Shown piece by piece: positions 3,734 to 44,140 of a DNA stretch of 44,389 bases. A model generated the notes under the pieces. The model saw only the letters and a program-made list of their open reading frames with translations, made no database searches and was not told the origin of the DNA. The stretch spans positions 1 to 44,389 of the forward strand of contig JAHJRD010000002.1 of the NCBI GenBank assembly GCA_018830945.1, written 5' to 3'. The stretch comes from Nanobdellota archaeon. GTDB taxonomy: Archaea > Nanobdellota > Nanobdellia > SCGC-AAA011-G17 > GW2011-AR17. Both the position numbers and the translations under genes were made by a program. Positions within the stretch are counted from its first letter, which is position 1. Every line of letters starts with the position of its first letter.

Positions 3734-4036
3734 ATGAAGGGTGATGATATTATAAAATCAAATGATACACTATATAAAAGGCTTAATGATTATATAAACA
3801 AGCAATCTGCCAAGGCCGGCGGAGTATTAACCATGGCAGTCGGCACAGGAGGCGGGGCAGGTGTTGCAGCAGAGAATGAATCCTATGCACTTTGCGGCAT
3901 CCTAACCGCATTAAGCCTGTTCTTTATCGGAGCAGCTGTGACATATTTTCAGCAGGCAGCTCAGGCAAGCTTCAGGCGCGATGTTGAGATTAGCAAAAAG
4001 CCAGGCGGGCTTGAGAACAGCATAGAAGAAGACTGA
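3734..4036 (+). CDS. Hypothetical small membrane protein
   Basis: 100-aa ORF with a Gly/Ala-rich hydrophobic core (LTMAVGTGGGAGVAA...ALCGILTALSLFFIGAAVTYF). A TATA-like tttatataaa lies about 30 nt upstream. Confidence 0.45.
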   Translation: MKGDDIIKSNDTLYKRLNDYINKQSAKAGGVLTMAVGTGGGAGVAAENESYALCGILTALSLFFIGAAVTYFQQAAQASFRRDVEISKKPGGLENSIEED

Positions 4037-4068: not shown

Positions 4069-4689
4069 TCACGCAGAATAAACAATTTTCTTTATCGCAT
4101 ACTCAATGCCTAAATTCCCAAATATCCTTTCAATGTCTTTTCTTTTCTGCCTGCTTACTAATATTCGCCCATTGCCCATATTAATAATGTCCTTCCCATC
4201 TATCAGTCCGGGATAGCTTTTCACAACCTTTTTTCCGCCATAATAATACCAGCTTTTCCTGCCATGAAGTATCTGGGAAAGCCTGACCTGCATAAGCCTC
4301 AGCCCAACATGGAATTCAAACAGGTAAAATGCCCTAAGCCCCAATGCCTCATTCCCAAGCGCAAGCAACCCTGATGAATAAACAAGCTTCCCTTCCTCCA
4401 TCATTTTCCGCATTAATGACTTATCCTGTTTTCCCATAACCAGCCCTTGATATTCCGGGTGCAGCCTTACTTTATATTCTGCATTGAGCCTTGATGTAAT
4501 CATCTCAATTTTCTGCTTAAGCAAAAAAGGCATTTTTTTCTTGGAAGCAAGCACAAGCAGGTCAATGTCAGAGTGCCTTTTGCTGTAATCTCCTCTTGCA
4601 AGGCTGCCGTAAAGGAAAACAGCAGAAATATCCTTAAAAGCAGGCATTTCATTTACAAATGCATCCACTGCCTTGTTTTCCCCATTCAT
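4069..4689 (-). CDS. Nucleotidyltransferase-domain protein (MNT/Pol-beta superfamily), partner of upstream HEPN-like gene
   Basis: The motif FLYGSLARGDYSKRHSDIDLLVL is the G-S-x(9-12)-D-x-D minimal NTase signature. Its start overlaps the stop of the upstream gene by 4 nt (ATGA at 4686-4689). See the finding on a possible frameshifted C-terminal tail. Confidence 0.75.
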   Translation of the reverse strand: MNGENKAVDAFVNEMPAFKDISAVFLYGSLARGDYSKRHSDIDLLVLASKKKMPFLLKQKIEMITSRLNAEYKVRLHPEYQGLVMGKQDKSLMRKMMEEGKLVYSSGLLALGNEALGLRAFYLFEFHVGLRLMQVRLSQILHGRKSWYYYGGKKVVKSYPGLIDGKDIINMGNGRILVSRQKRKDIERIFGNLGIEYAIKKIVYSA

Positions 4690-5060
4690 ATTATTTCCCC
4701 TGCAGCAAGGAGCGCGAATTTGCGCAGCATTTCATACTTCTTGCCATTTTGCGCGCGGTAGGCAACTGCATTTCTTAAATTTCTGTCAACAAGGTCGAAA
4801 AGCTCACGAAGCTCTTTTGAAAACATTCTGGCATTCTCAATAATCAGCCTTGCCCTGTTTTCATGGCTGTAAGAATGCATCTCCAATTCAGCAAGCTTTG
4901 CCTCTATCAAGCTTATGCCTGCATAAAAGTAATTTTGCGCAGCAACTGTCCTGTACGCAACCTTTGAGTCATTGCCGCTAGCCCGCTTAAACTTTTCATG
5001 CATGTCTTCTGCAATATCGAGATGCACCTTTGCGATTAGAATATGTATCTTTTTGTCCAT
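4686..5060 (-). CDS. HEPN-like helical protein, cognate of NTase 4069-4689
   Basis: All-helical protein of about 124 aa ending in ...LVDRNLRNAVAYRAQNG. It shares an R-N-x(3-5)-Y(G) motif with the two other NTase-linked partners in this window. The ORF-track start at 5078 is a TTG, so I used the ATG at 5058-5060. Confidence 0.5.
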   Translation of the reverse strand: MDKKIHILIAKVHLDIAEDMHEKFKRASGNDSKVAYRTVAAQNYFYAGISLIEAKLAELEMHSYSHENRARLIIENARMFSKELRELFDLVDRNLRNAVAYRAQNGKKYEMLRKFALLAAGEII

Positions 5061-5138
5061 TTTCTTTCTGTTTAACAATATAAACAGAAATAGTATATAA
5101 GCCTTCCTGTTTAAGATGTTAACCAGAAATGCCAGCCA

Positions 5139-6083
5139 TCAAGCCCAATGGAATCCTTTTGCAGCTTCCTGCCTGATTTCTGTGAATATTGAAGCATAAC
5201 CCGGAACCTTGGGCGCTTTCCTGTTGATGCCCATTCTTTTAATGTCATACAAGCTTCCTGGATAGCACCTGAGCGAGTCTGTATAAGTGCTTTTCAGCAT
5301 GCTCCTCAGCTTTTGCCAGTTAAAGAGCCCGTTATTTTTCCCTACTTCTATGAGAAGCCTATGCTCTGCAAGGGGCAGGTACTGGCAGATGTTGTCTGTT
5401 GCTATCGCCCTTTGCTTTTGCTTAAAGCCGTCAATCAGCGCCTCAACAAACAAGCCAACATCAAACTCCATTGAGCCCTTTTTCCTGAATGCGTCAATTG
5501 TCTTTGTCCTGCTGTAGAATGCCTCAAGGGTTTTTTCATCCGCATTCCTAAGGCTGAAATAGTCTTCAACGCATTTATTGACATTCTTTCTTTCATCAGG
5601 GTTTGTGTTAAGCCTGATATCCGCCATTTTAAGCGCGCCTGCCAGGATGTGGAGGTCTTTCAATAACAGTTTTTCAGGAAAAGTGAAAATCTTATAGACA
5701 TAGTCCTGGTAAAGCGCCCCTTTCCTGTGCGTCATGAGGTCTATGACAAAACATATAAATTCCCCGATTTCCCCTGCATTAGCAAATAAGTCGTTGAGGT
5801 AAACAACACCGCCCTCTTTTTTTGGCTCTTTTTCAAACGGGTTGAACACATCTATATTTTCTATGTCTTCGGCAGCATCGTGCAGCCATGCAGCAGCGAT
5901 TAAGGCATCCTGATACTTTGACTGAAGCGTAAGCTCGCCTGTCAGCAATGCAAGTTTTGCAAGGTGGTCATGGGTGTAAGGCAGGCCAGTGTCTCTTGTT
6001 ATGCCTTTGAAGAGCTGGTATGCAAGGCTGCTGGCGTACCCTTCAGCTGATTCGCCTTTCTCAATCTTCCTTATGGGCTGCAT
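5139..6083 (-). CDS. HD-domain protein, SpoT/RelA-hydrolase-like N-terminal domain plus uncharacterised C-terminal half
   Basis: H-x3-H...AAWLHDAAEDIE (the HD dyad) is followed by LKMADIRLNT, resembling the VKLADRLHNM helix of (p)ppGpp hydrolase HD domains. Confidence 0.55.
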   Translation of the reverse strand: MQPIRKIEKGESAEGYASSLAYQLFKGITRDTGLPYTHDHLAKLALLTGELTLQSKYQDALIAAAWLHDAAEDIENIDVFNPFEKEPKKEGGVVYLNDLFANAGEIGEFICFVIDLMTHRKGALYQDYVYKIFTFPEKLLLKDLHILAGALKMADIRLNTNPDERKNVNKCVEDYFSLRNADEKTLEAFYSRTKTIDAFRKKGSMEFDVGLFVEALIDGFKQKQRAIATDNICQYLPLAEHRLLIEVGKNNGLFNWQKLRSMLKSTYTDSLRCYPGSLYDIKRMGINRKAPKVPGYASIFTEIRQEAAKGFHWA

Positions 6084-6340
6084 AATGGCATATAATTAAA
6101 TGGTTATATAAAAGGCTTGTGATAAGGAAAAGCAGTAAAGGCGGATTTCTGCGGCTAAAAAAGGGCGGTAAAGGCGGCTTTGGTTTTATTGCTTTAATTG
6201 TTTTTCAATGAAGGAAATAAGTGAATTGGAGGGGCTTTCATAACATCTGCCTTTTTAGTGGCAACAAACAGAAAGGCTTAAATATGGGCTGTATATTACG
6301 CTATTATCCCAAGAAATAGCGCATAATGGGAGCAAATAAA

Positions 6341-7528
6341 ATGAAAACACCGGAAGCAGAGCTTGAAAGGCTGGTTGAGGAAGCGGGCAAGAAAGCGAAA
6401 GCCATGTCCAAATTAAGAGGCATGCACCCTGATTGTGAGAGAGGAATAGAAGTCTGTGAAGCCATAGAAGGGTATTATGCCGCCGCTAAATCAGCCCTGA
6501 AAAAAGGCGAACTCAATGCTGCTGTAACAGCCTTGCAGTTTCAGAGTTCTTGTGTTAAAGCATACATTAGCGAACTGGCGATGTTTCAGCCGCAACTTCG
6601 TTCATTTTTAGCAGAAAAGGGTATAGAAATGCCAGCACCAGCAACAAGAATGATAGATCTTGGAGAGTTGCAATTTTCCAGTCCTCAAGCAGATATTCGC
6701 AGCGGAAGAGGGCGGATAACAGAAGGAGGCATTCAATATAAAGGAATGGATGCTTTGCTCAAGCAGTATGAGGTGGCACTTGGAATTGAGAAATGGGGAG
6801 AGAAAAAGAGTTTTATAAATAATGTCAATAATATACTTGAGCCGGAGGAGATAAACAGGTTTTTGCAGGTGACAATAGCTTACAAAGCGCACGAAAAATA
6901 TGGTAACAATACAGGGCTTTTTGTAACACGGCTGATTCAGAACAGCTATGACGCCGGCTACGATAGTTTCCGCCTTGACACAAGGGCATTAAAAGAACTG
7001 CATTTTATAGGATGGGGAGCAAGAGGCAAAGATGGAAATCCGCTGGAGATTACTATAGAGGGGAATGCAGGGGAGCACTGCGGCGATCATGCAGAACGCT
7101 TAATAATCAGCATTGCAGGGAATGCAGGGCACTTCTGCGCCTATGAGGCAGAAGACTCAACAATCACTATTGGAGGGGATGCAGGGGCTTATTGCGGCCA
7201 TGATGCAAAAAGCTCAACAATCAGCATTGGAGGAAATGCAAGTAAAGACTGCGGCTGGAATGCAAAAAGCTCAACAATCAGCATTGCAGGGAATGCGAGA
7301 AATGCATGTGGCTTTGAGGCAGAAGACTCAAGAATCACTATTGGAGGGGATGCAGGGGACTGGTGCGGCTCCAATGCAAAACGCTCAATATTCAAGGCAA
7401 AGAAACCTGAGACGTTGGAAAATATGAAGAAGTATGTTGGAACAGGCAAGGGCAATAGGATATATTTTATACAAGCAGATGGGAATGAGGAAGAACTGCC
7501 TGAACAAGAATGGGGACGAATAAAATGA
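6341..7528 (+). CDS. Operon-A gene 1: uncharacterised protein with six C-terminal 19-aa Cys-containing beta-helix-like repeats (GXGXG-domain-like)
   Basis: The repeat is I-(T/S)-I-(G/A)-G-(D/N)-A-G-x-x-C-G-x-x-A-x-x-S-x, six copies. It resembles the G-x-A-G-x3-G-x2-M-x-G-G-x-I-x-V repeat of the FwdC / glutamate synthase C-terminal beta-helix. The central domain is paralogous to gene 5. The likely start is the ATG at 6341 (context gggagcaaataaaATG); the track start is 6326. Confidence 0.6.
   Translation: MKTPEAELERLVEEAGKKAKAMSKLRGMHPDCERGIEVCEAIEGYYAAAKSALKKGELNAAVTALQFQSSCVKAYISELAMFQPQLRSFLAEKGIEMPAPATRMIDLGELQFSSPQADIRSGRGRITEGGIQYKGMDALLKQYEVALGIEKWGEKKSFINNVNNILEPEEINRFLQVTIAYKAHEKYGNNTGLFVTRLIQNSYDAGYDSFRLDTRALKELHFIGWGARGKDGNPLEITIEGNAGEHCGDHAERLIISIAGNAGHFCAYEAEDSTITIGGDAGAYCGHDAKSSTISIGGNASKDCGWNAKSSTISIAGNARNACGFEAEDSRITIGGDAGDWCGSNAKRSIFKAKKPETLENMKKYVGTGKGNRIYFIQADGNEEELPEQEWGRIK
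7049..7390 (+). repeat. Six tandem 57-bp coding repeats (19 aa each), with 114-bp higher-order periodicity
   Basis: Unit boundaries read directly: 7049, 7106, 7163, 7220, 7277, 7334. Units 2 and 5 share ...gaggcagaagactcaa, and units 3 and 6 share atcactattggaggggatgcagggg. Confidence 0.9.
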
Positions 7529-8664
7529 GCAAAGGCAAGAATATTGAAGGATTGACAAAAACAGAGAATCCTGAGCAAAAGTTTGATGCAGAGCTCGGGT
7601 TTGCAAGCCTGGTGCACAGGTGCGTGTCCCGCAAACAGGTGATAGGGAAAAAGGATTTGCCAAGCCTAATAAAAGCAGTAGAAATCTTTGAAGCAAAGGA
7701 ACTTGCCTTTCCTGCTGCTGAAATTTCCGCATATGCGGCAGACATCACAAAAGACCCTGCATTATATGAGAAGGCAATCGCAAACTTTGAATGCGCGCCT
7801 GGCGGAGAAAGCGTGAATGCATGCATTATAGCCCGCTTAAAAAAGAAACAAGCCAAAGCAATAGAAAAGCTTAAGCCAAAGCCGAAATTTTCAGGAAAAG
7901 CACTTGCAGAAAGAATCCTTATTTCACTTGAAGAAAAGGTCAAGAAACAAAACATCAACAATATGCATGGTGTTTTGTTCATGGGGGAGGCTGATAAAGG
8001 GGGAGACAGAATCCATCCCTGTGTTCTGCTTGCGAAGAACGCTTCAGCAGCAATCGCATACGCTCTTATCGGAAACACTGAAAGGGCAAGTGAAATGCTG
8101 AAGGGGATAGAAGAGCACATAGGAAAAGTGAAATTTGGCAGACTCTACTATAACAACTCTGAGAGCAATGCATTGCTCACAAAAGACAGCGCGCTTGTTG
8201 CTGCATTATATTCAACCCTTGGGAATAAGGACGAAGCGCTTGCTATATTAAAAGACATAGACAAATGGATAGGCAAAAAGAATTCTCTTTACTGTTCCGG
8301 TACAAATACTGCCTATTGCCAAATAATATCTCCTGAAGCTATAACAACCGGTGCAAACGCAGCAATGGCGCTGGCATTCGCATCAGTCGGGAACAGGCAG
8401 AGAGCAGGGGAATTGCTTGAGGGGATAGAGCTTAAAATAGGCAGGCAGCGGGGCCTCTATAGGTATCGCGCTGAAAAAAGTAAATTCAATTCTGGAGGAG
8501 TAAGCGATACAAGCATGGTTGCGGCAGCGTATGCAGCAACAGGAAATAGCGATATGGCTGCAGGCATAGCAGAAACATTGCGCCTTAAGAAGCACAAGGA
8601 CACTTTTGTTGCGGTAACCTATGCGCTGCTTGACAAGACAAGAAGAAAATGGCAAGAGTATTAA
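7525..8664 (+). CDS. Operon-A gene 2: uncharacterised helical-repeat protein (alpha/alpha-toroid or TPR-like repeats)
   Basis: There are four copies of a motif of about 45 aa: A-A-(I/L/M)A(Y/F)A-x2-GN-x3-A-x2-(M/I/L)L-x-(G/D)I-x3-IG...(G)LY. Examples are AIAYALIGNTERASEMLKGIEEHIG and ALAFASVGNRQRAGELLEGIELKIG. The ATG at 7525 overlaps the gene-1 stop (ATGA). Confidence 0.55.
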   Translation: MSKGKNIEGLTKTENPEQKFDAELGFASLVHRCVSRKQVIGKKDLPSLIKAVEIFEAKELAFPAAEISAYAADITKDPALYEKAIANFECAPGGESVNACIIARLKKKQAKAIEKLKPKPKFSGKALAERILISLEEKVKKQNINNMHGVLFMGEADKGGDRIHPCVLLAKNASAAIAYALIGNTERASEMLKGIEEHIGKVKFGRLYYNNSESNALLTKDSALVAALYSTLGNKDEALAILKDIDKWIGKKNSLYCSGTNTAYCQIISPEAITTGANAAMALAFASVGNRQRAGELLEGIELKIGRQRGLYRYRAEKSKFNSGGVSDTSMVAAAYAATGNSDMAAGIAETLRLKKHKDTFVAVTYALLDKTRRKWQEY

Positions 8665-8689
8665 AAGAAATGAATAGGGAGAAATAAAA

Positions 8690-9478
8690 ATGAAAACACC
8701 AAAAGCAAAGCTTGAAGAACTGGAACATATGCTGGTTAACTCTATTAATCATGAACTTAGCACATTTTATAATCCCTGTTTTCATAATGAACCGGGATAT
8801 GACTACGATTTAGATGAAGACATTCCAATGGAAGTTATAAGAGAAGTTATCAAAAGGTATTTGGATGTGGGCTGGCAAGCGGGATATCATAAAAAATGGG
8901 GCATAAACAGGCACGGCGGAAAGATAGATGTTATCATATTCAGAAAAAGAGGGGTTTCCGAAGCAGGTGAAACAGAAAGCCTAGGGGAGGAATGCAGGGG
9001 GTGTAATTTAACAAAACAAGAAAAAGAAAAGCTTGGGCTTGACAAAAAAGTGCAGATAGTTTGGGATGATGAGATACAAGGGTTTAAGGCTGAAGGCAAG
9101 GCGGTGGATGTTATCCCCCTGGGAACGCCTATGCTCGCCAGAATCTACTGTGTCTCTTGCGATTACGGCGGGGATACTTCGTATAAGGCAACAAGAAATG
9201 CGGTGCCTTTTGACAGGATAAACGAAGCATTCAACGCTTACCTTAAGGAAAATCCATACAAGACATCAATGGAAGGGGTGCGGGCGAAGCTTGATGCAGC
9301 AAGGCTGGATGCAAACGCCTCTTTGCTGGAAAAAGCAAAATATTTCAGTGTAGGAAACCGATACTCAACCAAGATGTCCAGTTTAGGCTTGGGGATAGAT
9401 GAGAAGCCGCAGAAAACAATAATTGTGCCTGTTGCACTGTATCGTGATAAAGAAAAAACAAAAAAAGGAGGCAAGTAA
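8690..9478 (+). CDS. Operon-A gene 3: hypothetical protein
   Basis: 262-aa ORF. Its N-terminus MKTPKAKLEELE and upstream context gggagaaataaaaATG duplicate those of gene 1 (MKTPEAELERL). No known motif recognised. Confidence 0.55.
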   Translation: MKTPKAKLEELEHMLVNSINHELSTFYNPCFHNEPGYDYDLDEDIPMEVIREVIKRYLDVGWQAGYHKKWGINRHGGKIDVIIFRKRGVSEAGETESLGEECRGCNLTKQEKEKLGLDKKVQIVWDDEIQGFKAEGKAVDVIPLGTPMLARIYCVSCDYGGDTSYKATRNAVPFDRINEAFNAYLKENPYKTSMEGVRAKLDAARLDANASLLEKAKYFSVGNRYSTKMSSLGLGIDEKPQKTIIVPVALYRDKEKTKKGGK

Positions 9479-9479
9479 A

Positions 9480-10292
9480 ATGACAGCCAATCCATGCAAA
9501 TCAAGGATAATGAAAGAAAGCGGAGAAATCTTAGAAGCGCATTTCCACAACGGCTTCCATCCTGCGAAGGATATTATAGCCCTGAAAGCAGAGGGGCTTG
9601 AAGTGATAACCGCAATGGAGCTTGCAGAGGCAAGAATTGCAAGCAAAGATATTCCTCCTGTTGTCAGGGAGATTTGGTCCCCGCAATTTAACTGCGTCGC
9701 TGGCAAAATACGCGCGCCAGGCAGCCCGATTCTCACAGATATGTTCTTTTTAGCTGAGAATTTCAATTACATGCTCAACGGAGACATACTTGTTGCATCC
9801 CGCGAATACAGCCCTATCCTGAGGTTTCCGGAAAAAGCACAAGAAAGACACAAATATGGCAAGGAGTTTTATCTTGATGACGCCATTGTTAATGAGCTTA
9901 TGGCTCATGCGGAAACAGACCCTAAAAAAGCAATAAAAAGCGGGGTCCTGCGCATACAGGGCTGGAGAGGCGGATTGGCTGACCGCTATTTTATGGAACT
10001 GCCTACAATGTATCTTGCAGGATACCCGCTCGCGCAGTTCCTTTTCAGGAATTTTGCAGGACCATACGGCCGCTTTCTCAACAGCCTTGGGGAAACAAGC
10101 ATCCCCGTCGCTGCAGCGCACTCAAATTACGCAACGCGGCAGGAAAAGCCGTTCGCAAGGCCTTTAGTAATGGGGCATATTGACTATCCTGAACTTGACG
10201 GCGATAATGAAGATGTATATAATGGATATCATTCCATCCTTTACGGCAGTGTTTGCGGAATGCGCCGGATACACGGAGCTAATGCACAATGA
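9480..10292 (+). CDS. Operon-A gene 4: hypothetical protein
   Basis: The ATG at 9480 lies 1 nt after the gene-3 stop and is preceded by aaaggagg. The ORF-track start at 9423 is a TTG inside gene 3. No known motif recognised. Confidence 0.55.
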   Translation: MTANPCKSRIMKESGEILEAHFHNGFHPAKDIIALKAEGLEVITAMELAEARIASKDIPPVVREIWSPQFNCVAGKIRAPGSPILTDMFFLAENFNYMLNGDILVASREYSPILRFPEKAQERHKYGKEFYLDDAIVNELMAHAETDPKKAIKSGVLRIQGWRGGLADRYFMELPTMYLAGYPLAQFLFRNFAGPYGRFLNSLGETSIPVAAAHSNYATRQEKPFARPLVMGHIDYPELDGDNEDVYNGYHSILYGSVCGMRRIHGANAQ

Positions 10293-10990
10293 TAGGCGCT
10301 TTTTTTGAAGGGCTTGATGAAATAATGAAGAATTATGAAGCATATCTGCCATGCACACCAAAGCCATTTGAGCTTACGCCTGTAGCACATAGAGCATTCA
10401 GGGAAGCTTGTGGTCTGGAATTGCCAATCTTGACGCCTGAGCAGATTAATCTTTTTCTGCAGGCAACGACCGCATTTCAGGGCAGTAAAAACTACTCATT
10501 CAATACAGGATTGTTCCTTTCAAGGCTGATGCAGGACAGCCATAAAGCGGGGCATTCAAAGTTTGACCTTGATACCAGTGCTCTGGATAAGCAAGTGGAA
10601 TATATTGGATACGATCTTTCTGGAACAGAAAAGTGCCCAGTACAACTATTGATACGAAACAATGCAGGCTATGGATTATGTGAGCATGCAAGATATGTGA
10701 AGGTTTATGCAAGGCGCGTTGGCGACTGGTGCGGAATGAACGCCCAAGACCTTACAGTCATCGCTGAAAAAGTGGGATATGGCTGCGGCGACCATTCAAT
10801 GTGCATGACAGTCTATGCTGACGAAGTGGGGAACTACTGCGGCTTTGATTCATGCAGAATGACAGTGCATACCGGAAAAATAGGAGAGAATTATGGGTGC
10901 GGCGAAGAAGAGATATGGAAATTTACATTAAAAGAGCGCAGCCTAAGAATGATGGCAAAGCTGAAACGCGCGCTCGCAAACGGGCTGTAA
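10289..10990 (+). CDS. Operon-A gene 5: paralog of gene 1 (shared central domain plus degenerate Cys-containing 19-aa repeats)
   Basis: INLFLQATTAFQGSKNYSFNTGLFLSRLMQDSHKAGHSKFDLDTSAL aligns with INRFLQVTIAYKAHEKYGNNTGLFVTRLIQNSYDAGYDSFRLDTRAL of gene 1. The C-terminal repeats are VGDWCGMNAQDLTV / VGYGCGDHSMCMTV / VGNYCGFDSCRMTV. The start overlaps the gene-4 stop (ATGA). Confidence 0.6.
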   Translation: MIGAFFEGLDEIMKNYEAYLPCTPKPFELTPVAHRAFREACGLELPILTPEQINLFLQATTAFQGSKNYSFNTGLFLSRLMQDSHKAGHSKFDLDTSALDKQVEYIGYDLSGTEKCPVQLLIRNNAGYGLCEHARYVKVYARRVGDWCGMNAQDLTVIAEKVGYGCGDHSMCMTVYADEVGNYCGFDSCRMTVHTGKIGENYGCGEEEIWKFTLKERSLRMMAKLKRALANGL

Positions 10991-11017: not shown

Positions 11018-13021
11018 TTATCTCACATACCTTACAATCCAGCACTCTTTCAATGACTTGATGTCAGCAAACCTTGATATGATTTCCTTTGCTTTCTCAA
11101 CATTGAATTTCGCGTCAAGCTTTTCAGCCTTCAGCCTTCCAAACTCAGGCTTTTCATACGATGCAAAATTTTTCAATGAAGAAAACAGCTTAAGGCTTTC
11201 TGAAACAGAGTAAGAATCGCCGTCTTTTTCAAAATACCCTTTCTTTACCAAGATAGTAATCAGGTCATACAAGTCAGAGAACTGAACCCCTGACTTTGCA
11301 AACAATTCAGCAGGCTTGAACCTTGCCATCTGCATTGCTGTCTTAAACACCCTGTCCTGCTGCGGCGACAGCTCCTCAAGCCCGAACTCAAGCAGCTTTG
11401 AGCCCTCGCCTGAATCAACATTAGTCATTGCTTTTCCAGAAAACAAGTCAATCAATAAATTAAACTCATCCTTGCCCTGCCTGCACAGCATGAACACAGC
11501 AGGAGACAATACTGTTGTTACTTTAATGCCTTCCATCAGCTCCAAGTCTCTTGCAGTAATCTTCGGCGTGATAAGCAAAAGCATGTCCTCAACAGCGTCG
11601 TCTGAAAGAGATGACTCATTCATTGAAAGAATGTTAACAGCCTCACCGCCGTGCTTTGTCCTTCTTGGCCTGATATTGACAAACAAAGGCAAATCAATAA
11701 CTCCGGTTACAAGCGCTGTGCCAACAGGAAGGTCCTTAATCTCTTTTTCAGTTTCAGCTGTAATCCCCTCAATTGAATTTGACAATGCCTTTATGTCATG
11801 GGGGTTAGTGACTTTCATTATTATCTGCGTTGATACTTGTGAAATTACGCTCTTATCCAAACGGCTCGGCCTTTGCGAAATAACGCACATGCCCATTCCG
11901 AACTTCCTGCCTTCTGCAGTAACCTGCCTGATGATAGAGCTTGACTTTGCCTCTCCAAAATTGCGTTCAGGGCAGAAGTTCTGCGCCTCCTCAATTACCA
12001 AAAAGAAAGGGGGGATGTTGCCTTTTTTTCTTGCAGTGAACAAGTCGTTTGTAATCTTATAGACAATCACTTCCTGCACCTCAGGCGGAATGCCGCGAAG
12101 ATTAATTATCGAACACTTGTCCTGCTGAACCAGCTCAGAAGAAAGCGTTGGATTCTCAGACAGCAGGTCAAGCTTTTTAATGTATTCAAGCATGTTAATC
12201 AATGTCCATTTTGAGCTGCTTTCCTCAGAAGCCTCTAATTCAAAAACAAGCTCATTAAAGTCAGCATTTCCGCCTAAATTCTTCAATGCAGAATACAATA
12301 TGCCTAACTGCGAGCTTGAAAGCTTTGCAGGAAGAAGATGTATGAGCTCAGCAGGCGTAAGCCCCTTGCTGTTTAACTTTAACGGCTTTGCATTCGGGTT
12401 TAATTCAATGTCAGGGGAAAACTCCCTTACCTGCCTTGCATAGGCTTTTGGCTTTAAGCCGAATTCAGAAAGCTTTTCAGAATCAGTATTTGCGTTTGCC
12501 AGGGAAGAATACTCGCCGTGAGGGTCAATTATTACCAATGGAACTTTCTTGTCCAAAAGCTCCTCAAGAATCACAGCAGATGTATAGCTTTTTCCAGAGC
12601 CTGACTTGCCTGTCACAAAAATGTGCTTTGTTATTAATTTGTTTAAATCCAAGCTTATTTTCAGGTTCTTTCTTCCGTCCAATACGCCGATATAAGCTGC
12701 GTTTTTCAATGCCTCAAGCCCTAAAGTTGCTTTCACAAAATCATCATCAGCCCTTACAACCTCTGTATTGTATTCAAAGGGAAATGAAAGTGTTTTTAAG
12801 ACATTGTTCTTATCCCTGAACCCTATGACATTGCAGTAGCCGATTGTGTTATTTGAAGTATGCTCAATCTCCATTATTTGTGCTAATACATTGCCAAGCT
12901 CCTTGTGAGCCACTTTCACATACCCGAACTTGTGCGCATTGCCCTCTACAGTGAAAGAGAAGGTGTTTGTTGAGACTTTTCCTGTAATTCTTCCTAAGGA
13001 CATATTGGTTTTAATGGGCAT
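11018..13021 (-). CDS. herA: HerA/DUF87-type P-loop ATPase with C-terminal extension of about 200 aa
   Basis: Walker A is FVTGKSGSGKSYT and Walker B is FFLVIEEAQNF. An N-terminal barrel-like segment reads GRITGKVSTNTFSFTVEG...GYVKV. The ORF-track start at 13096 is a TTG inside a repeat element, so I used the ATG at 13019-13021 (an alternative ATG lies at 13001-13003). No NurA-like partner is adjacent. Confidence 0.8.
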   Translation of the reverse strand: MPIKTNMSLGRITGKVSTNTFSFTVEGNAHKFGYVKVAHKELGNVLAQIMEIEHTSNNTIGYCNVIGFRDKNNVLKTLSFPFEYNTEVVRADDDFVKATLGLEALKNAAYIGVLDGRKNLKISLDLNKLITKHIFVTGKSGSGKSYTSAVILEELLDKKVPLVIIDPHGEYSSLANANTDSEKLSEFGLKPKAYARQVREFSPDIELNPNAKPLKLNSKGLTPAELIHLLPAKLSSSQLGILYSALKNLGGNADFNELVFELEASEESSSKWTLINMLEYIKKLDLLSENPTLSSELVQQDKCSIINLRGIPPEVQEVIVYKITNDLFTARKKGNIPPFFLVIEEAQNFCPERNFGEAKSSSIIRQVTAEGRKFGMGMCVISQRPSRLDKSVISQVSTQIIMKVTNPHDIKALSNSIEGITAETEKEIKDLPVGTALVTGVIDLPLFVNIRPRRTKHGGEAVNILSMNESSLSDDAVEDMLLLITPKITARDLELMEGIKVTTVLSPAVFMLCRQGKDEFNLLIDLFSGKAMTNVDSGEGSKLLEFGLEELSPQQDRVFKTAMQMARFKPAELFAKSGVQFSDLYDLITILVKKGYFEKDGDSYSVSESLKLFSSLKNFASYEKPEFGRLKAEKLDAKFNVEKAKEIISRFADIKSLKECWIVRYVR

Positions 13022-13040
13022 TGTGTTTATTAAGATTGCT

Positions 13041-13110
13041 GTAATGGAGGATAGTGATAGAAGGAGCAGCCTCCGGCGTGGTTTTATTGTTTTCAATGGT
13101 TATGCACGCT
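13041..13110. repeat. Direct repeat copy 1 (70 bp), left boundary of TA cassette
   Basis: gtaatggaggatagtg[ata]gaaggagcagcctccggcgtggttttattgttttcaatggttatgcacgct is identical to 14918-14984 apart from a 3-bp indel. Confidence 0.9.
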
Positions 13111-13272: not shown

Positions 13273-13506
13273 CTAAACCGCCAGCCTAAATTTTTCATAA
13301 TCTTCTTTAGTTAATTTTACCTGATTTAAAATTTCCCGCAAAAGTCCCTTTCCAATTTCTTCATTGCCATGGACAGGAACAACGGTTATCCGGCCATCTG
13401 GATGCCTATACCTTATATGACTTCCTCTTTGATGAAGCTTTTCAAAACCCCTTTTTTCAAGAAGTTTACATAATTTTTTACCAGAAATTGTAACTAATTT
13501 AGTCAT
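13273..13506 (-). CDS. hicA: HicA-family toxin (mRNA interferase)
   Basis: The 77-aa product reads GKKLCKLLEKRGFEKLHQRGSHIRYRHPDGRITVVPVHGNEEIGKGLLREIL, the typical HicA dsRBD-like pattern with a G-S-H catalytic region. It overlaps hicB by 4 nt. Confidence 0.85.
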   Translation of the reverse strand: MTKLVTISGKKLCKLLEKRGFEKLHQRGSHIRYRHPDGRITVVPVHGNEEIGKGLLREILNQVKLTKEDYEKFRLAV

Positions 13507-13730
13507 GATGCAACAGGAACCTCAACTTGCTGGATTCCTATAAATTTCAAGGGTTCATACAAGAATTCTTCGGCTTCTATACAAACTTGGATAGCTTCTT
13601 TCACTCTTGTTACAGCTTCTTCCACACTCTTCCCTTGACTATAGCATCCAGGAATATCAGGTACTTTTGCTACATAAATCCCATCTTCATCCTGTTCAAT
13701 AATCACCGTATAATTTGAAAATTTTACCAT
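13503..13730 (-). CDS. hicB: HicB-family antitoxin (UPF0150)
   Basis: YTVIIEQDEDGIYVAKVPDIPGCYSQGKSVEEAVTRVKEAIQ is the classic HicB N-terminal fold pattern. It lies upstream of and overlaps hicA. Confidence 0.85.
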   Translation of the reverse strand: MVKFSNYTVIIEQDEDGIYVAKVPDIPGCYSQGKSVEEAVTRVKEAIQVCIEAEEFLYEPLKFIGIQQVEVPVAS

Positions 13731-13879: not shown

Positions 13880-14311
13880 ATGACTGCAAAAGAAATCCAC
13901 AAAGAGCACATAAAGGAGCACATACAGGAAATTGAAGATGCAATAGCAATAGGCATAGAAAGAAGGCCCGCAACAATCGGGCTACATGTTTCCGCGTGCT
14001 CGATAGAGCTCTTGGAATTGTACCTGCATGCAATGGGCAAGATAACCGCCGGGACAATGATTAAGCATGGATGGTTCAAGGCTCCCAAGCCCGGGCAAAA
14101 GATTGAGCCCTTGGCTGACAGGAAGCTCGGAGTCAGCTTTCCTGCAAAAGACGATATTCTTTCCCTAATGTATACCATAGAGGATGAAAGAAACAAGACA
14201 ATATACGGCAAGCCAAGCAATGCCGGCGTAAGCGCGATTCTGGCGGCATTCCAAAAGCTGCACAAGATTATAAAAGAAAGGCTGCATGGCTTGGGTGAAG
14301 AAATTGAATAG
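13880..14311 (+). CDS. HEPN-like helical protein, cognate of NTase 14286-14921
   Basis: Helical 143-aa protein with EDERNKTIYGKPSNAG, the same R-N-x(3-5)-Y-G motif as the other two NTase partners. It overlaps the downstream NTase gene. Confidence 0.5.
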   Translation: MTAKEIHKEHIKEHIQEIEDAIAIGIERRPATIGLHVSACSIELLELYLHAMGKITAGTMIKHGWFKAPKPGQKIEPLADRKLGVSFPAKDDILSLMYTIEDERNKTIYGKPSNAGVSAILAAFQKLHKIIKERLHGLGEEIE

Positions 14312-14921
14312 GCAGACACCGCGCGCAATTGCCTATTGCTATGATGCATTGGGCTTTCTTTTTATGGAGCCTGATGCATATGCTCTTATAAACAGCATTT
14401 ACCTGCACGGCTCTGCAGCAAGAGGCTCGCTTACGGAAAAAAGCGATATGGACCTGTTTTTAGATACGGCAGATGAAAACGCAGGAGCAATAGAAAAAAT
14501 CGCTGTCAATGCGATAAAGCGGTTTTATAATTCAAATGATTATGAAAAATGGAAACGCCTTGGTTTTTTGCATACAATCTCAGTAATGGCAGGGGCATTG
14601 GAGAAATGGGAGCTTAAGCAAGGCATTATGGCTGACGGCATATTATTGTACTCAAAAAAAACCGCTTTAATGCCGGCTGAACGCAGGGTGATGTTCATAT
14701 TTAAAATTCCAAAAATAAAAAAGAAATACCTGAAGTTTACAAGGGCCTTTTTCGGTAGAAAAGAAGCAGGGTACAAAGATAAGGGAATTCTTGGAAAAGT
14801 AAAAGGCGATAAGATAAGCGCGAATGCCATAATTGTGCCTAAAGAGAGCCAGCAGGAAACAGAGAGGGCGCTGCAAAAAGAAGGCATAGATTATTCCATG
14901 AAGGAGATTTGCCTTCTGTAA
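14286..14921 (+). CDS. Nucleotidyltransferase-domain protein (MNT-like)
   Basis: IYLHGSAARGSLTEKSDMDLFLD is the G-S-x(n)-D-x-D NTase motif. Its stop codon is the first TAA of direct-repeat copy 2. Confidence 0.75.
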   Translation: MAWVKKLNRQTPRAIAYCYDALGFLFMEPDAYALINSIYLHGSAARGSLTEKSDMDLFLDTADENAGAIEKIAVNAIKRFYNSNDYEKWKRLGFLHTISVMAGALEKWELKQGIMADGILLYSKKTALMPAERRVMFIFKIPKIKKKYLKFTRAFFGRKEAGYKDKGILGKVKGDKISANAIIVPKESQQETERALQKEGIDYSMKEICLL

Positions 14922-14984
14922 TGGAGGATAGTGGAAGGAGCAGCCTCCGGCGTGGTTTTATTGTTTTCAATGGTTATGCACGCT
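14918..14984. repeat. Direct repeat copy 2 (67 bp), right boundary of TA cassette
   Basis: See 13041-13110. This copy contains the stop and last three codons of the minus-strand gene 14974-16773, and the stop of the plus-strand NTase gene. Confidence 0.9.
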
Positions 14985-16773
14985 TAAATGCCGAATATTT
15001 TTCGTATGGCAAAACTGATAATTTTAATAGATAGTTGGGATCTTTGCGTAATCTGCCAATAACCCCATAAGTATCTTTTAGCAGCCTTCCTATTTCTCCA
15101 ATCCGCGCTCTCGCAACCCGCAGGCTGGCGTCAGCAATATCCCCTCTAACTGTTTCAAGCAAATCAACCTCACGCTCAAGATGTCCCTTAATTTGGTATA
15201 AAGCAAAGCCTACTCTTGGAACCACTTCAGGATTAAATTTTGCAAATTCACGCGGACTGTTAATATGCTTACGCGCCAATTCAAGCAGCCTCTTATTCTC
15301 ATCAAGTCTTGCTTCACATCTTGGCTTTCCATCAAGCCTTTGTTTATATTCATTTTTTGCAAGTCCTAATAATTGCCCGTCTGGCAAATGATTAAATCTT
15401 CCTGCAAAAAAATTGCGGCATGCTTTTACATCCCCCTGGATAGCAGCAAATTGCGGTATATATTCATCTAAATCTGCAAGGCACTCTTCTGCCTGCCGGA
15501 CATCCTTTTCCCTATTTTTTAAGTAACGTTGCGCACGGTCCAGGACCACCCTGTCAATAGCACCAGGCAAAAGAATATCTTCAAACCCCCCAATCTCTTC
15601 AATTTGCCTAAAAACTTCCTGCCTGCTTCCATTACAGCCATTTCTTCTTATTTCAAAAGCACAGGGAGCTATGTATGATTTCCAAATCTCTTCAGCAAGA
15701 GCCTTTGGGCGCTTTAATTCAGTTCTCCATTTAATGCCTAATCCTTTTGATAATTCCCTGCAATAATCTTCAATATCTCTTTTTGTCCTATCCGGCACCT
15801 CATCAATATAGTCACGAAATGTGAGCCTTATAATCTCATGCGGGTCTGCTAATTCTGCAAGTGTTCTCATGTCCGAAAAATCAGTAAACTTATACCCATC
15901 GTTAGTCAAAACAAGATTTTCAGAATGGGCGCATGTATGTATCAGCATGGAATCCAGAGTCATCATCTCCACAAACTGCTGCGCCAACCCCATCGCCGTT
16001 GCATTTGGCTTATTTTTTATTTTGGGGAAGGCATCATTTCCATTAAAAGATGCCCTAACAGAAGAAGGAGATAACCGCAAGAGATAAGCCTGGTCTGTGC
16101 TGTCCCCGCAATACCTTAATTCCCCATCATACTCAACCAGCAATGCAGCCCTGGGGGAATTTGCATTTCGGAATGCAATACTCTTTTCATTTCTAAGTAT
16201 TTCCAGATTCCTGAATTCCCTTCTGCCTTGTGCTACCTCAAGCCCTCCCCATCGCGCGTGCCCTGAACCAAAATACGACATGCGCGTTTGCAAATCTGTG
16301 ATAGAATTGTTTCCATTAGGCACGCCAACGCCCTTAATCTCTACAACAAACTCCTTGCCTGCCTGCTTAACAACAACGGGCTTTCTCTTGTAAAGCAAAA
16401 CTCCTGTTCTTCCCTGGGGCTTGCTTTCATTGGTTGCATACATCAAAGCAGAGAACTCACTATCTTTATCTGAAGAGGTTCTAAGTATTGAGCCTGCATC
16501 AAACACTTCTCTTACTTGTTCTGGCAATGCCTCATAATCATTGCTTTTTTTAAAAGCCTTTATTTTTGGCTTTTCAACCCTCAGCGGAACAATCTGTGCT
16601 TTTCTGTGAGGATCCCATCCAAATACGCATCCTAAAAAACATTCTCCAAGATTCCTGTCTGTCCTGATTTGATGGCTGTCTGAAACTATTGCCTCTATTG
16701 TTTCGTCTTTCCCTCTGCAAAAACCAATAATGTTCCGTGTTTCTGTGCCAATATTTGGATATGGATTAGTCAT
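14974..16773 (-). CDS. Large uncharacterised protein, N-terminal protein-kinase-like fold (possibly atypical or inactive) plus helical C-terminal half
   Basis: EFVVEIKGVG is beta3-Lys-like. LIHTCAHSENLVL aligns to the I-H-x-D-x-H-x-x-N catalytic loop, with Cys where the Asp is expected. KFTDFSD is DFG-like. The ORF-track start at 16791 is a GTG; I used the ATG at 16771-16773, preceded by gaggg. Confidence 0.4.
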   Translation of the reverse strand: MTNPYPNIGTETRNIIGFCRGKDETIEAIVSDSHQIRTDRNLGECFLGCVFGWDPHRKAQIVPLRVEKPKIKAFKKSNDYEALPEQVREVFDAGSILRTSSDKDSEFSALMYATNESKPQGRTGVLLYKRKPVVVKQAGKEFVVEIKGVGVPNGNNSITDLQTRMSYFGSGHARWGGLEVAQGRREFRNLEILRNEKSIAFRNANSPRAALLVEYDGELRYCGDSTDQAYLLRLSPSSVRASFNGNDAFPKIKNKPNATAMGLAQQFVEMMTLDSMLIHTCAHSENLVLTNDGYKFTDFSDMRTLAELADPHEIIRLTFRDYIDEVPDRTKRDIEDYCRELSKGLGIKWRTELKRPKALAEEIWKSYIAPCAFEIRRNGCNGSRQEVFRQIEEIGGFEDILLPGAIDRVVLDRAQRYLKNREKDVRQAEECLADLDEYIPQFAAIQGDVKACRNFFAGRFNHLPDGQLLGLAKNEYKQRLDGKPRCEARLDENKRLLELARKHINSPREFAKFNPEVVPRVGFALYQIKGHLEREVDLLETVRGDIADASLRVARARIGEIGRLLKDTYGVIGRLRKDPNYLLKLSVLPYEKYSAFKRA

Positions 16774-16932
16774 CTTTTGGAAGGCCCTCACGAATTATCA
16801 ATTCAGTTGTCTTTCATGGCTCTTTTGGGATGTTTTTTCATATTTAAAGCTTCCTATTCTGTTGTCACTTATTAATAGCGAAACATTTATAAACAGGAAA
16901 AGCAGCTGAAATAACAAGATTCAGGGGGTAAA

Positions 16933-17295
16933 ATGAACGACTATGAAAAAACAGTCCTTAGAAGAGTTCTCGAAATAGGCGGAAAGCTGCTTGAGGGCGT
17001 TGCAGTTTATGGGCTATTCTATAATGCTATTAACCCGAATCAGGACAGCCTGCGCAACGCGTATATAGCGGCTGGAACAGGAGTTGCAGGAATATGCTTA
17101 GACAAGATTGGAAATAAGATTGTAAGCCATGTAAAGGAAATAAAGCATATACGCGAAAGAAAGCAAATACAAAAACAGCTTGAGGAAATCGTAAGTGAAA
17201 ACAATATCAGGATGGGGCTTCCTGCTGAGACAAGGCCCGAAGACAGGGTGAAGGCAAGAGCTGCAGAATATGCAAGAATGCAAGGGAGAAAATGA
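16933..17295 (+). CDS. Operon-B gene 1: small hydrophobic/charged protein (putative membrane protein)
   Basis: 120-aa ORF with an aggggg Shine-Dalgarno-like (SD) site 6 nt upstream. The N-terminal half is hydrophobic (GVAVYGLFY...AAGTGVAGICL) and the C-terminal half is charged. Its stop overlaps the next start (ATGA). Confidence 0.55.
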   Translation: MNDYEKTVLRRVLEIGGKLLEGVAVYGLFYNAINPNQDSLRNAYIAAGTGVAGICLDKIGNKIVSHVKEIKHIRERKQIQKQLEEIVSENNIRMGLPAETRPEDRVKARAAEYARMQGRK

Positions 17296-18131
17296 TGAGA
17301 AAAGCAATAATCCAGTTTACAAACAAATGCAATGCCCAGTGCAGGCACTGCGCGTATGAATGCGGGCCAAAAGGAGAAACAATGAATAAGAAAGACATTG
17401 AAAAGGTTCTGAAGCATTTGCCGGAAACAATCGAATATTTTGTTATATCAGGAGGAGAGCCCCTTGTGGCAATGGATGAGCTAAGGCATATGCTTTCATA
17501 CATTAGAGAGCAAAAACTAATTCCAAATGCAAGAATCCATGTGGAAACAAACGGCTTCTGGGCAAGGGATGCTGAATCAGCTTATAGGGTATTAAAAGAG
17601 CTGCACGAGTTTGGTGTTCATGGTGTTGCGCTTGCAAGCATGGATAAGTTCCACAGGGAAGCAGGAATAAACACAGAAAATCTTGAATGGAATCCTTCAA
17701 CTCCCATTTACCTTGCGCTGGAAAGGCTTTACAAGGAAACAGGAAGCACAAGGGATTATCCTATTGAAGTTGAGGCAAAGGGCGCAGTGCACGGAGTCCT
17801 GCCTGTCGGAAGGGCAAGGAATTTGCCTGAAGAGGAATTCGCAGTGCGCTCTGTGTGCGATATCAGCCTGGAGAATGAAGTTACAATAGACCCAAGAGGC
17901 ATTGCATATCTTTGCTGCTGGAGAACTATCCCCTCAATCGGCTCTGCAATTGACAGGCCTGTTGATGAATTGGTTAGAGAAGCAAGCAAAGACAAAATAA
18001 TGCAGGCGCTGCTTGAGCAAGGGCCTGAAGGAGCTGCAAAAGAATTGGGCGTTTACAAGGAAACTGATGAAGAAATATACAGGATAAATCCCTGCGTGAA
18101 GTGCGAGGAGATTTTTAGGGGTGTGAAATGA
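17292..18131 (+). CDS. Operon-B gene 2: radical SAM enzyme with SPASM/twitch-like C-terminal Cys motifs
   Basis: CNAQCRHC is the CxxxCxxC radical SAM cluster motif and SGGEPL is the SAM-binding motif. The C-terminal VC-x13-G-x4-C(C) and C-x2-C (CVKCEEIF) fit a partial SPASM signature. Confidence 0.8.
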   Translation: MMRKAIIQFTNKCNAQCRHCAYECGPKGETMNKKDIEKVLKHLPETIEYFVISGGEPLVAMDELRHMLSYIREQKLIPNARIHVETNGFWARDAESAYRVLKELHEFGVHGVALASMDKFHREAGINTENLEWNPSTPIYLALERLYKETGSTRDYPIEVEAKGAVHGVLPVGRARNLPEEEFAVRSVCDISLENEVTIDPRGIAYLCCWRTIPSIGSAIDRPVDELVREASKDKIMQALLEQGPEGAAKELGVYKETDEEIYRINPCVKCEEIFRGVK

Positions 18132-43817: not shown

Positions 43818-43921
43818 TGGACCGGACGGGATTCGAACCCGCGACCACCTGATATCTTCCAAGCCTGGTAAAAGTTACACCGCGATTGCTCAGGTGCGCT
43901 ACCAGGCTGCGCTACCGGTCC
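43818..43921 (-). tRNA. Interrupted tRNA (104 nt); best reading is tRNA-Lys(UUU) with two 15-nt introns
   Basis: The acceptor (GGACCGG/CCGGTCC), D arm (GCGC AGCCTGGTA GCGC) and T arm (GCGGG TTCGAAT CCCGT) are perfect. Anticodon stem CCTGA/TCAGG encloses 37 nt instead of 7. Removing 43875-43889 and 43854-43868 leaves the loop CTTTTAA. The tRNA call is confident; the anticodon and intron model is inference. Confidence 0.6.
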
Positions 43922-44065
43922 ATAAGGGCTTCGCCCTTATCAACCCCAGTGGGTATCTCGCTTTGCTTGAACCCACATTGCGCACCCACATTCTGGTGCG
44001 CAGGGCTTTTTTACGCCCTGGCCGATGCAGGAACTTGCGTTCCTTATCGTCCACGACGCTTTCAG
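43922..44065 (-). other. Hairpin-dense 144-nt spacer between two tRNA genes (candidate ncRNA or processing module)
   Basis: Six consecutive stem-loops were read directly: 43922-43940 (8 bp), 43949-43976 (6 bp), 43979-44002 (8 bp), 44001-44020 (6 bp), 44029-44044 (6 bp, GCAA loop on the minus strand) and 44048-44058 (4 bp). Confidence 0.35.
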
Positions 44066-44140
44066 CGCCCTGGCCGAGATTTGAACTCGGGTCGCAACCG
44101 TGACAGGGTTGTATGATAGACCGGGCTACACTACCAGGGC
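44066..44140 (-). tRNA. tRNA-Asp (anticodon GTC), no encoded CCA
   Basis: The minus strand reads GCCCTGG TA GTGTAGCCCGGTCTATCAT A CAACC CTGTCAC GGTTG CGACC CGAGTTCAAATCTCG GCCAGGGC G, with anticodon loop CU-GUC-AC. Confidence 0.85.

Follow-up and report, generated by a model that had tools for sequence, protein, structure and literature searches.

A strain-variable gene cassette of a Nanobdellota archaeon encodes predicted capped beta-helix and AvpA-like proteins

The GXGXG beta-helix domain serves as a non-catalytic scaffold in the structures of formylmethanofuran dehydrogenase (Fwd), Fhc and glutamate synthase (GltS). A different fold is represented by AvpA (PDB 5IOO), the variable protein of a diversity-generating retroelement (DGR) of Nanoarchaeota, which belongs to a distinct archaeal subclass of C-type-lectin folds and employs its C-terminal loops as ligand-binding site (Handa et al. 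2016, PMC5006420). AvpA-like proteins of groundwater DPANN archaea are mostly linked to DGRs, but examples without a DGR are known from Woesearchaeota (PMC5006420). In the MoxR-vWA ternary conflict systems, a diversifying third component is added, and often C-type-lectin sensors as well (Kaur et al. 2020, PMC7159879; Dore et al. 2024, PMC10907252). Here, we analyse a cassette of five genes, designated g1 to g5, in which the first two of these folds are predicted to occur together. The cassette occupies positions 6341-10990 of a stretch of 44,389 nucleotides from a Nanobdellota archaeon (contig JAHJRD010000002.1 of assembly GCA_018830945.1), which was analysed over its whole length and is called the window hereafter. 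Loci retrieved for comparison carry L numbers.

We consider it slightly better than an even bet, with a rough probability of 0.55, that this locus is a single-promoter, strain-variable and recombination-prone DPANN cassette of non-enzymatic binding and scaffold proteins, and not a conserved metabolic or structural operon. This figure covers the explanation as a whole, which draws mostly on its structural and evolutionary part. The analysis establishes the predicted folds of g1, g5 and g4, the existence of paralog arrays and a gene content that varies on a fixed backbone. The cassette and its convergent neighbour are composed as follows:

6341-7528, plus strand: g1, 395 aa, capped GXGXG beta-helix protein (predicted)
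7525-8664, plus strand: g2, 379 aa, helical-repeat protein (TPR-like)
8690-9478, plus strand: g3, 262 aa, lineage-restricted orphan
9480-10292, plus strand: g4, 270 aa, AvpA-like C-type-lectin fold (predicted)
10289-10990, plus strand: g5, 233 aa, shorter paralog of g1
11018-13096, minus strand: HerA-type ATPase (PF01935, E 1.8e-33; PADLOC HerA models)

A first-pass annotation, which had been made from the sequence without database searches, described five tightly packed plus-strand genes, and this layout was confirmed. The five plus-strand open reading frames (ORFs) at 6341-10990 show operon-like packing with the ATGA overlaps named there at 7525-7528 (g1/g2) and 10289-10292 (g4/g5), a gap of 25 nt between g2 and g3 and a gap of 1 nt, at position 9479, between g3 and g4. 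Identical calls for all five genes were obtained from an independent 68-kb assembly of the same genome. Also as described before, the convergent HerA gene, which has no NurA partner, follows 27 nt downstream of g5, and the surroundings are populated by toxin-antitoxin (TA) modules, namely pairs of the nucleotidyltransferase (NTase)/HEPN type at 4069-5078 and 13880-14921 and a HicA/HicB pair at 13273-13730. The window is an archaeal chromosomal contig with a split RpoB, RpoA, aminoacyl-tRNA synthetases and an intron-containing tRNA. The first-pass annotation had been unable to assign any of the five proteins to a pathway, and the database searches lead to the same result: in Pfam, NCBIfam, PADLOC, PHROG and PDB, no enzyme, defence or phage family was matched by g1 to g5 apart from a similarity of g1 to the FwdC/GXGXG beta-helix, and g2, g3, g4 and g5 returned nothing from PADLOC, PHROGs, NCBIfam or Pfam. 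Inspection of the N-termini by eye revealed neither a signal peptide nor a transmembrane segment. A viral origin was considered as well and found to be unsupported, as scans of viral contigs for the g1/g5 family, g2, g3 and g4 gave no matches and a fold search of BFVD with g1 remained empty.

Comparison with close relatives separates the variable genes from the backbone on which they reside. The loci L022 and L023 belong to a metagenome-assembled genome (MAG) of groundwater Nanoarchaeota with a backbone that is 70-82% identical at the protein level. The order of genes there is XPD helicase, acylphosphatase, a 149-aa protein, g2 (71% identity), g4 (71%), a second g4-like gene (g4', 39%), the NTase/HEPN pair on the minus strand, HerA on the minus strand (78%), HIT and radical-SAM. 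Relative to this arrangement, the cassette of the window is expanded to g1-g2-g3-g4-g5. A third relative, the 3.96-kb contig L026 from another sample, carries g3 (79%), g2 (77%), g4 (77%) and g5 (93%), in this order, and no g1. The first-pass annotation had raised the question whether the five genes and the HerA neighbour are conserved as a set, and the five-gene set proved not to be a conserved unit. Only g2-g4-g4' are present in L022/L023, and L026 is devoid of g1. The adjacency of g2 and g4 is the sole feature that is constant among the compared relatives, the g2 orthologs (71-77% identical) being always located immediately upstream of the g4 ortholog. Since HerA is retained with 78% identity in L022/L023, where g1, g3 and g5 are missing, it is part of the syntenic backbone and no demonstrated member of the cassette; the loci with arrays of g1/g5 paralogs described below lack HerA.

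The interval has also been rearranged outside the cassette. The NTase/HEPN-type pair of the window (4069-5078, minus strand) is 79-82% identical at the amino acid level to that of L022 (11588-12579, minus strand), and the two elements occupy swapped positions: the pair is located between cassette and HerA in L022 and upstream of the cassette in the window, where an HD-domain gene (5139-6083) has been added next to it. This swap of cassette and TA module marks the interval as a recombination hot spot. A further peculiarity is seen in L026 (Logan SRR29054613, 3957 bp), which contains sequence of the HerA 3' end on the minus strand at both of its ends (1-213 and 3879-3957). In HerA coordinates, the two pieces are contiguous (aa 607-676 at the start and about aa 679-692 at the end of the contig), stop codons precede the fragment at the start, and the cassette looks as if flanked by HerA 3' repeats. 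These ends could reflect a tandem duplication, a circular molecule or an assembly loop.

Traces of rearrangement are also found at the 5' ends of the genes, where three segments are relevant:

6250-6340, plus strand: upstream (putative promoter) region, 82% identical to positions 313-410 of L026 (window 6250-6341)
6328-6374, plus strand: 47-nt duplicated segment, copy 1, comprising the ribosome-binding site (RBS) and the first 11 codons, at the head of g1
8677-8723, plus strand: 47-nt duplicated segment, copy 2, at the head of g3, 81% identical to copy 1

The upstream region contains a TATA-like A/T-rich element, TTAAATAT, at about 6278-6285, and a GGGAG RBS is present at 6328-6332. The segment 6250-6340 is the candidate promoter of the cassette, from which g1 to g5 would be co-transcribed. 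The common start of g1 and g3 and their shared initiation context, reported in the first-pass annotation, take the form of a 47-nt direct repeat with 81% identity, and 8 of the first 11 residues of the two proteins are identical. The RBS context AATGGGAGCAAATAAAATGA recurs in front of g2 (7509-7528, 85% identity), and an additional copy, which had escaped the first-pass annotation, precedes g4 (9464-9483, 80% identity). The copies at g1 and g3 are thus real, whereas the idea of an internal duplication of 5' ends needs to be modified: as the region preceding g1 in the window precedes g3 in L026, the duplicated 5' end can be explained as the scar of a rearrangement. Such an event would have brought g1 into the position behind the promoter of the cassette and shifted g3 to its place between g2 and g4. 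Presumably, the RBS and the initial 11 codons of g3 were copied in this rearrangement, by which g1 entered the head of the cassette.

The protein encoded by g1 is predicted to consist of five parts, listed here with the tandem repeat from which its helical rungs arise:

g1 aa 1-97: N-terminal helical bundle, specific to g1 (AlphaFold2 model)
g1 aa 98-131: disordered linker (AlphaFold2 model)
g1 aa 136-204: four-helix cap domain with the most conserved motifs of the family, PEQINxFLQ and NTGxFITRLIQNS (AlphaFold2 model)
g1 aa 209-353: GXGXG-type beta-helix with one strand per 19 aa (AlphaFold2 model)
g1 aa 356-386: small C-terminal alpha/beta cap (AlphaFold2 model)
7061-7388, plus strand: 57-nt (19-aa) tandem repeat encoding the beta-helix rungs of g1, one Cys each (5.8 copies with 71% matches by Tandem Repeats Finder)

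The paralogy of g1 and g5 noted in the first-pass annotation is borne out by BLASTP (E 8e-28, 32% identity over 220 aa), the alignment spanning the central domain and the repeats. Likewise, the 19-aa repeats with a single Cys were recovered by Tandem Repeats Finder as a 57-nt period, and six G..G..CG motifs are spaced by exactly 19 residues at aa 241-336 of g1; a second repeat search places the block at 7004-7394. The repeats of g5 are degenerate (V-G-x-x-C-G) and still contain one Cys each. In the family alignment, g5 comprises the central cap domain and a degenerate beta-helix of about five rungs and lacks the conserved C-terminal cap; it matches the hidden Markov model of the family with E 7e-51.

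What had been called a Cys-ladder, beta-helix-like repeat is indeed beta-helical, and the fold is a known one, the GXGXG beta-helix of FwdC, FhcC and glutamate synthase. The AlphaFold2 model of g1, built with 12 family sequences, has a mean predicted local distance difference test score (pLDDT) of 85.5, which exceeds 95 (about 97-98) over aa 140-390. When this model was searched with Foldseek, the best matches were FhcC (6s6y_C) and FwdC (5t5i_C), along with 8rja_C, with a probability of 1.0, while GltS was matched with 0.92. The profile of the g1/g5 family retrieves FwdC chains from PDB at E 4.5e-8. By the model, g1 adopts a right-handed GXGXG beta-helix. At the level of family models the similarity is below threshold: g1 matches TIGR03122 (FwdC) with E 2.7e-14 and 53.0 bits (curated cut-off 130.65), NF042910 with 32.1 bits (cut-off 340) and PF01493 with E 6e-4 and 19.8 bits (gathering score 32.5). 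Neither TIGR03122 nor NF042910 is matched by g5, and PF01493 is found at E < 0.01 in 5 of 85 members of the g1/g5 family. In the profile alignment, the Cys of each rung pairs with the hydrophobic Ile/Val of the FwdC core and is read, on the basis of this alignment, as a probable core-packing residue and not as a surface ligand.

Thus defined, g1 and g5 represent a rare family without a Pfam entry, in which a four-helix cap precedes a beta-helix of variable length and another cap is found at the C-terminus. A scan at species level, with one genome for each of 185,579 species, detected the family in only three genomes and ten loci; the genomes are two Woesearchaeota MAGs and one MAG labelled Methanosarcinales. 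Three further loci were contributed by a metagenome scan of 241 million records. A word-indexed search of 5.8 billion proteins returned 8-11 relatives, a number that underestimates the family, as 11 members were obtained even with an 85-sequence profile as compared to about 100 present in the fetched loci. Every locus of the family that is longer than a couple of kilobases is a tandem array of about 10-20 overlapping genes on the same strand (10 copies in L009, 20 in L012 and 18 in L013). In total, 89 family ORFs were counted in array loci, with more in L017 and L018, and the 'Methanosarcinales' MAG possesses >50 family genes on two contigs. The members carry between 0 and 8 canonical rung motifs spaced by 19-20 aa. 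Homologs of g2, g3, g4 or HerA are absent from all fetched array loci of the family.

In several arrays the family is accompanied by genes of another kind. A MoxR-like AAA+ protein is encoded next to the arrays in three loci, L009 and L011 (AAA_5 plus AAA_lid_2 in both) and L015 (an 81%-identical homolog), and a vWA-type protein of 650-816 aa adjoins or lies within the arrays in three loci from three genomes, L009, L011 and L012, that of L012 being a 39-49% identical homolog without a Pfam VWA match of its own. Among themselves, the MoxR-like and vWA-type proteins of the array loci are 39-81% identical. These neighbours, and the parallel to the ternary systems described by Kaur et al. 2020 (PMC7159879) and Dore et al. 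2024 (PMC10907252), raise the possibility that g1 and g5 are stray members of an archaeal MoxR-vWA system, in which beta-helix paralogs constitute an expandable third component, serving as substrates, adaptors or sensors that undergo remodelling by the AAA+/vWA pair, with the MoxR/vWA pair for g1 and g5 being encoded elsewhere in the genome. However, the window and its 9-kb upstream flank contain neither a MoxR nor a vWA gene, and the fetched sequences of the arrays L001, L003, L008, L013 and L018 are devoid of both. Moreover, the family appears to belong to neither VMAP nor iSTAND, effector domains were not observed, and PADLOC gave no matches. We therefore consider this explanation of the locus rather unlikely. 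A broader proposal, doubtful to a somewhat greater degree, would regard the whole g1/g5 family as the germline-diversified third component of an undescribed archaeal MoxR-vWA system, i.e. as a paralog repertoire of recognition or decoy modules, differing in rung number and surface, that are loaded or remodelled by the AAA+ and vWA proteins. If this were true, the two members recruited beside an AvpA-like binder would link paralog arrays and a DGR-type scaffold in DPANN host/virus recognition.

Some further observations on the arrays deserve mention. The loci L012, L013, L017 and L018 reside on contigs CAZWBB010000017/33 (46 and 33 kb) of an 'uncultured Methanosarcinales', which consist almost wholly of family paralogs, accompanied by a vWA protein, TA pairs and a gene with Bro-N. 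At 42%, the GC content of these contigs is the same as in the window and in the loci from Woesearchaeota. Two readings are offered, namely that the contigs belong to a DPANN genome and were binned wrongly, or that a transfer of the family took place between host and symbiont. In L011 (4676-6904) and L015 (3800-6049), the gene for the MoxR-like ATPase is directly followed by family ORFs of 742 and 749 aa, respectively, which appear to be in-frame fusions of two or three family units. Finally, an NTase/HEPN-type pair is situated divergently just upstream of family genes in the window (4069-5078), in L001 (5187-6201), in L018 (5852-6842) and in L019 (82-1072), a recurrence that involves three unrelated genomes. 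A specific link between these pairs and the arrays was considered and set aside: as the NTases are only weakly similar to one another (best E 7e-13) and the genomes are rich in TA modules, the association is probably a coincidence.

The first-pass annotation had recognized no motif in the products of g3 and g4. This assessment stands for g3, which gave no match in the libraries searched, whereas g4 proved to belong to a family of its own and to yield an AvpA-like model. An exhaustive phmmer search of 1.84 billion representative proteins uncovered 133 relatives of g4; those with a source name are hypothetical proteins of DPANN archaea (Nanoarchaeota or Woesearchaeota). Sequence searches with the family, including the g4 profile, found no match in Pfam or PDB. 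The AlphaFold2 model of g4, for which 60 relatives were used, reached a pLDDT of 87 and a predicted template-modelling score (pTM) of 0.87. In Foldseek, it matched AvpA (5IOO chain A) with E 3.2e-7, a probability of 1.0 and template-modelling (TM) scores of 0.54/0.68 over 254 columns, and AvpA was its sole PDB match at E <= 0.001, the next one having an E value above 1. As judged from the model, g4 adopts an AvpA-like C-type-lectin fold. By position, the stretch of g4 that is equivalent to a variable region (VR) extends over about aa 238-262 (nt 10191-10265). Throughout the family, the C-terminal stretch is rich in N, D, Y, H, S and G and highly variable, and it is followed by a conserved G-x-V-x-G-V-R strand. 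Only g4 and its close ortholog contain a disordered insertion, at aa 62-79 of g4. Elsewhere, members of the g4 family sit singly among housekeeping genes and without HerA.

The match to AvpA and to nothing else in PDB at this threshold, the DGR linkage of most AvpA-like proteins in groundwater DPANN archaea (PMC5006420), and the composition and variability of the C-terminal stretch would all suit a scenario in which a DGR encoded elsewhere in the genome acts remotely on g4, and perhaps on all five genes, and directs adenine-specific mutagenesis to the C-terminal loops of g4. However, a template repeat (TR) with adenine mismatches was found neither in the 44-kb window nor in L022, L024, L025 and L026, and blastn detected no second copy of the candidate VR in L021, the 9-kb upstream flank. 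No reverse transcriptase is encoded among the scanned ORFs of the window, which include all ORFs of at least 300 aa, or listed in the Pfam annotations of L021-L025. Hypervariation of g4 was not observed either: its sequence is identical in the NCBI, ENA, Logan and JGI assemblies, and the VR-like stretch is nearly invariant, with 5 changes in the last 35 aligned residues relative to the 71% ortholog. In addition, the listing of AvpA-like proteins without a DGR for Woesearchaeota provides a precedent (Handa et al., PMC5006420). We regard the DGR scenario as quite improbable. By its model, g4 would rather work like an AvpA-type binding scaffold, with the hallmarks of a DGR target absent from the sequence examined.

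The sequence of g2 displays a repeat with a length of about 45 aa (A..A.A..G....A...L..I....G...LY), and matches to tetratricopeptide repeat (TPR) models in Pfam/NCBIfam are sub-threshold (TPR_7, E 0.014; TPR_19, E 0.11). Beyond L022/L023 and L026, the fetched loci contain no homologs of g2 or g3, and sequence searches of PDB with either protein gave no matches. Pfam, NCBIfam, PADLOC and PHROG had nothing to offer for g3 either. The g3 ortholog with 79% identity is the first cassette gene of L026 (411-1190), and g3 is absent from L022. A zinc ribbon in g3 was rejected, since its first CxxC motif is not kept in the L026 ortholog.

It is also quite unlikely that the cassette represents the effector or sensor arm of a HerA-based anti-virus defence with HerA as the motor. 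Such a role is suggested by the position of HerA, which is convergent, 27 bp away, matched by PADLOC and without NurA, by the short distance of g2-g4 to HerA, about 1.2 kb or less in both the window and L022, by the HerA-derived sequence at both ends of the L026 contig and by the TA modules around the locus. However, genes in this convergent arrangement cannot be co-transcribed, the three genomes are close enough relatives that the proximity may be inherited, and in L022, where g1, g3 and g5 are missing, the NTase/HEPN pair separates g4' from HerA. PADLOC recognizes HerA alone and none of g1 to g5, a co-varying nuclease or effector partner is lacking, and loci of the g1/g5 and g4 families elsewhere are without HerA. 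Finally, the view that g1 and g5 are FwdC/FhcC- or GltS-domain-3-like subunits of an enzyme complex for formyl transfer or glutamate synthesis, for which the FwdC and GXGXG matches as the only database similarity of g1 speak, is scarcely credible, because these scores stay far below the cut-offs (53 versus 130.65 and 19.8 versus 32.5 bits) and the similarity is confined to the beta-helix, because catalytic partners (FwdA/B/D, FhcA/B/D or those of GltS) are absent from the window and the array loci, and because a stoichiometric enzyme subunit is not compatible with the presence of dozens of tandem paralogs in one genome.

Taken together, a variable cassette of binding and scaffold proteins is the explanation we prefer. 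In this model, the cassette is located in a recombination-prone island between the conserved XPD-helicase and HerA genes of the backbone and would have been assembled from lineage-restricted, fast-evolving binding and scaffold families. The pair g2 and g4 would be its stable core and g3 a mobile orphan. The products are likely cytoplasmic and non-enzymatic: g4 may recognize a ligand via its C-terminal loops, g2 may act as a helical-repeat adaptor between proteins, and g1 and g5 may provide beta-helix scaffolds that can be adjusted in length and dock to a shared partner by means of the conserved cap. The amplification of the g1/g5 family, its association with MoxR/vWA elsewhere and the parallels with lectin-sensor MoxR-vWA ternary systems give a weak hint at a recognition role, which the cassette may exert in host-symbiont or anti-invader conflict. 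Several points weigh against this explanation. We infer a single transcription unit for g1 to g5, and we read the function of the products from folds and context only. Since MoxR and vWA genes are missing from the window and the 9 kb upstream, the role of g1 and g5 may differ from that of the arrays. The conservation of g2-g4 concerns three close relatives with 70-80% amino acid identity, in which synteny may simply be inherited. Furthermore, the Cys ladder could still bind a metal or form disulfides, and an enzyme could hide in g2 or g3, for which the evidence is at the level of sequence.

Other parts of the window contain a few further features of note. At 16933-19839 (plus strand), a 120-aa ORF, two radical-SAM proteins, one of them with SPASM, and a transglutaminase-like protein are encoded; the cluster is kept in L022/L023 and resembles a peptide-maturation set, similar to those for ribosomally synthesized and post-translationally modified peptides. 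Between this cluster and the adjacent TA pair, a 605-aa ORF without Pfam or PHROG match is located (14974-16791, minus strand). Rfam identifies a tRNA of 104 nt at 43818-43921 (minus strand), which was missed by ARAGORN and adjoins tRNA-Asp (44065-44140); it is presumably an intron-containing archaeal tRNA. The alanyl-tRNA synthetase ORF at 31767-33539 (plus strand) measures 590 aa as compared to 841 aa in the Woesearchaeota locus L024, which suggests that the enzyme is truncated or split. Truncated or split alanyl-tRNA synthetases have been reported in some nanoarchaea.

DPANN archaea have tiny genomes and yet spend space on unexplained, fast-evolving families, two of which are joined at this locus. 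One of them is represented by g4, a relative of the AvpA lectin-fold binder for which no DGR was found; the other, the undescribed capped beta-helix family, has arrays that fill tens of kilobases in a few MAGs of Woesearchaeota and 'Methanosarcinales'. Should these families act as repertoires for recognition or scaffolding, they could provide an entry point to the host/virus interactions of ultra-small archaea, and they would also place the GXGXG beta-helix in a new context outside formylmethanofuran dehydrogenase and glutamate synthase. For genome annotation, the findings imply that FwdC-like matches in DPANN genomes should not be taken as one-carbon metabolism.

The GXGXG beta-helix and the AvpA-like lectin fold are already known. 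Within the libraries and the literature searched, new elements are the family of capped, Cys-cored beta-helix proteins of variable length, its giant tandem arrays with MoxR/vWA neighbours in several loci, and the presence of this family beside a non-DGR AvpA-like protein in a shuffling cassette. As in the MoxR-vWA ternary systems, MoxR-like AAA+ and vWA genes adjoin arrays of the g1/g5 family in other genomes. However, the order MoxR-vWA-array differs from the known VMAP-MoxR-vWA, the hosts are archaea whereas the described systems occur mainly in multicellular bacteria, and a peptidase, TIR or other effector domain was not seen. VMAP-C differs as well, as its published description as an alpha+beta domain, on which our comparison relies, contrasts with the helical cap and beta-helix of the g1/g5 family. 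Like AvpA, g4 has a size of about 250-270 aa, relatives in DPANN archaea, no signal peptide discernible by eye and, in its family, a G-x-V-x-G-V-R strand that is reminiscent of the RFxGV beta5 motif of AvpA. Unlike AvpA, from which it differs with an identity of merely 12% such that sequence profiles fail to join the two, g4 contains the insertion aa 62-79 and shows no TR/VR pair, reverse transcriptase or hypervariation. With FwdC, FhcC and GltS (PF01493, TIGR03122), g1 and g5 share the fold, which is built from rungs of about 19-20 aa with the pattern G-[ND]-x-G-x-x-hydrophobic-G. The g1/g5 family departs from these proteins by its sub-cut-off scores, its lack of catalytic partner genes, its tandem arrays and its varying number of rungs. 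It adds an unrelated four-helix cap and a C-terminal alpha/beta cap to the common beta-helix, in which Cys takes the place of the core hydrophobic residue and Ala that of Met.

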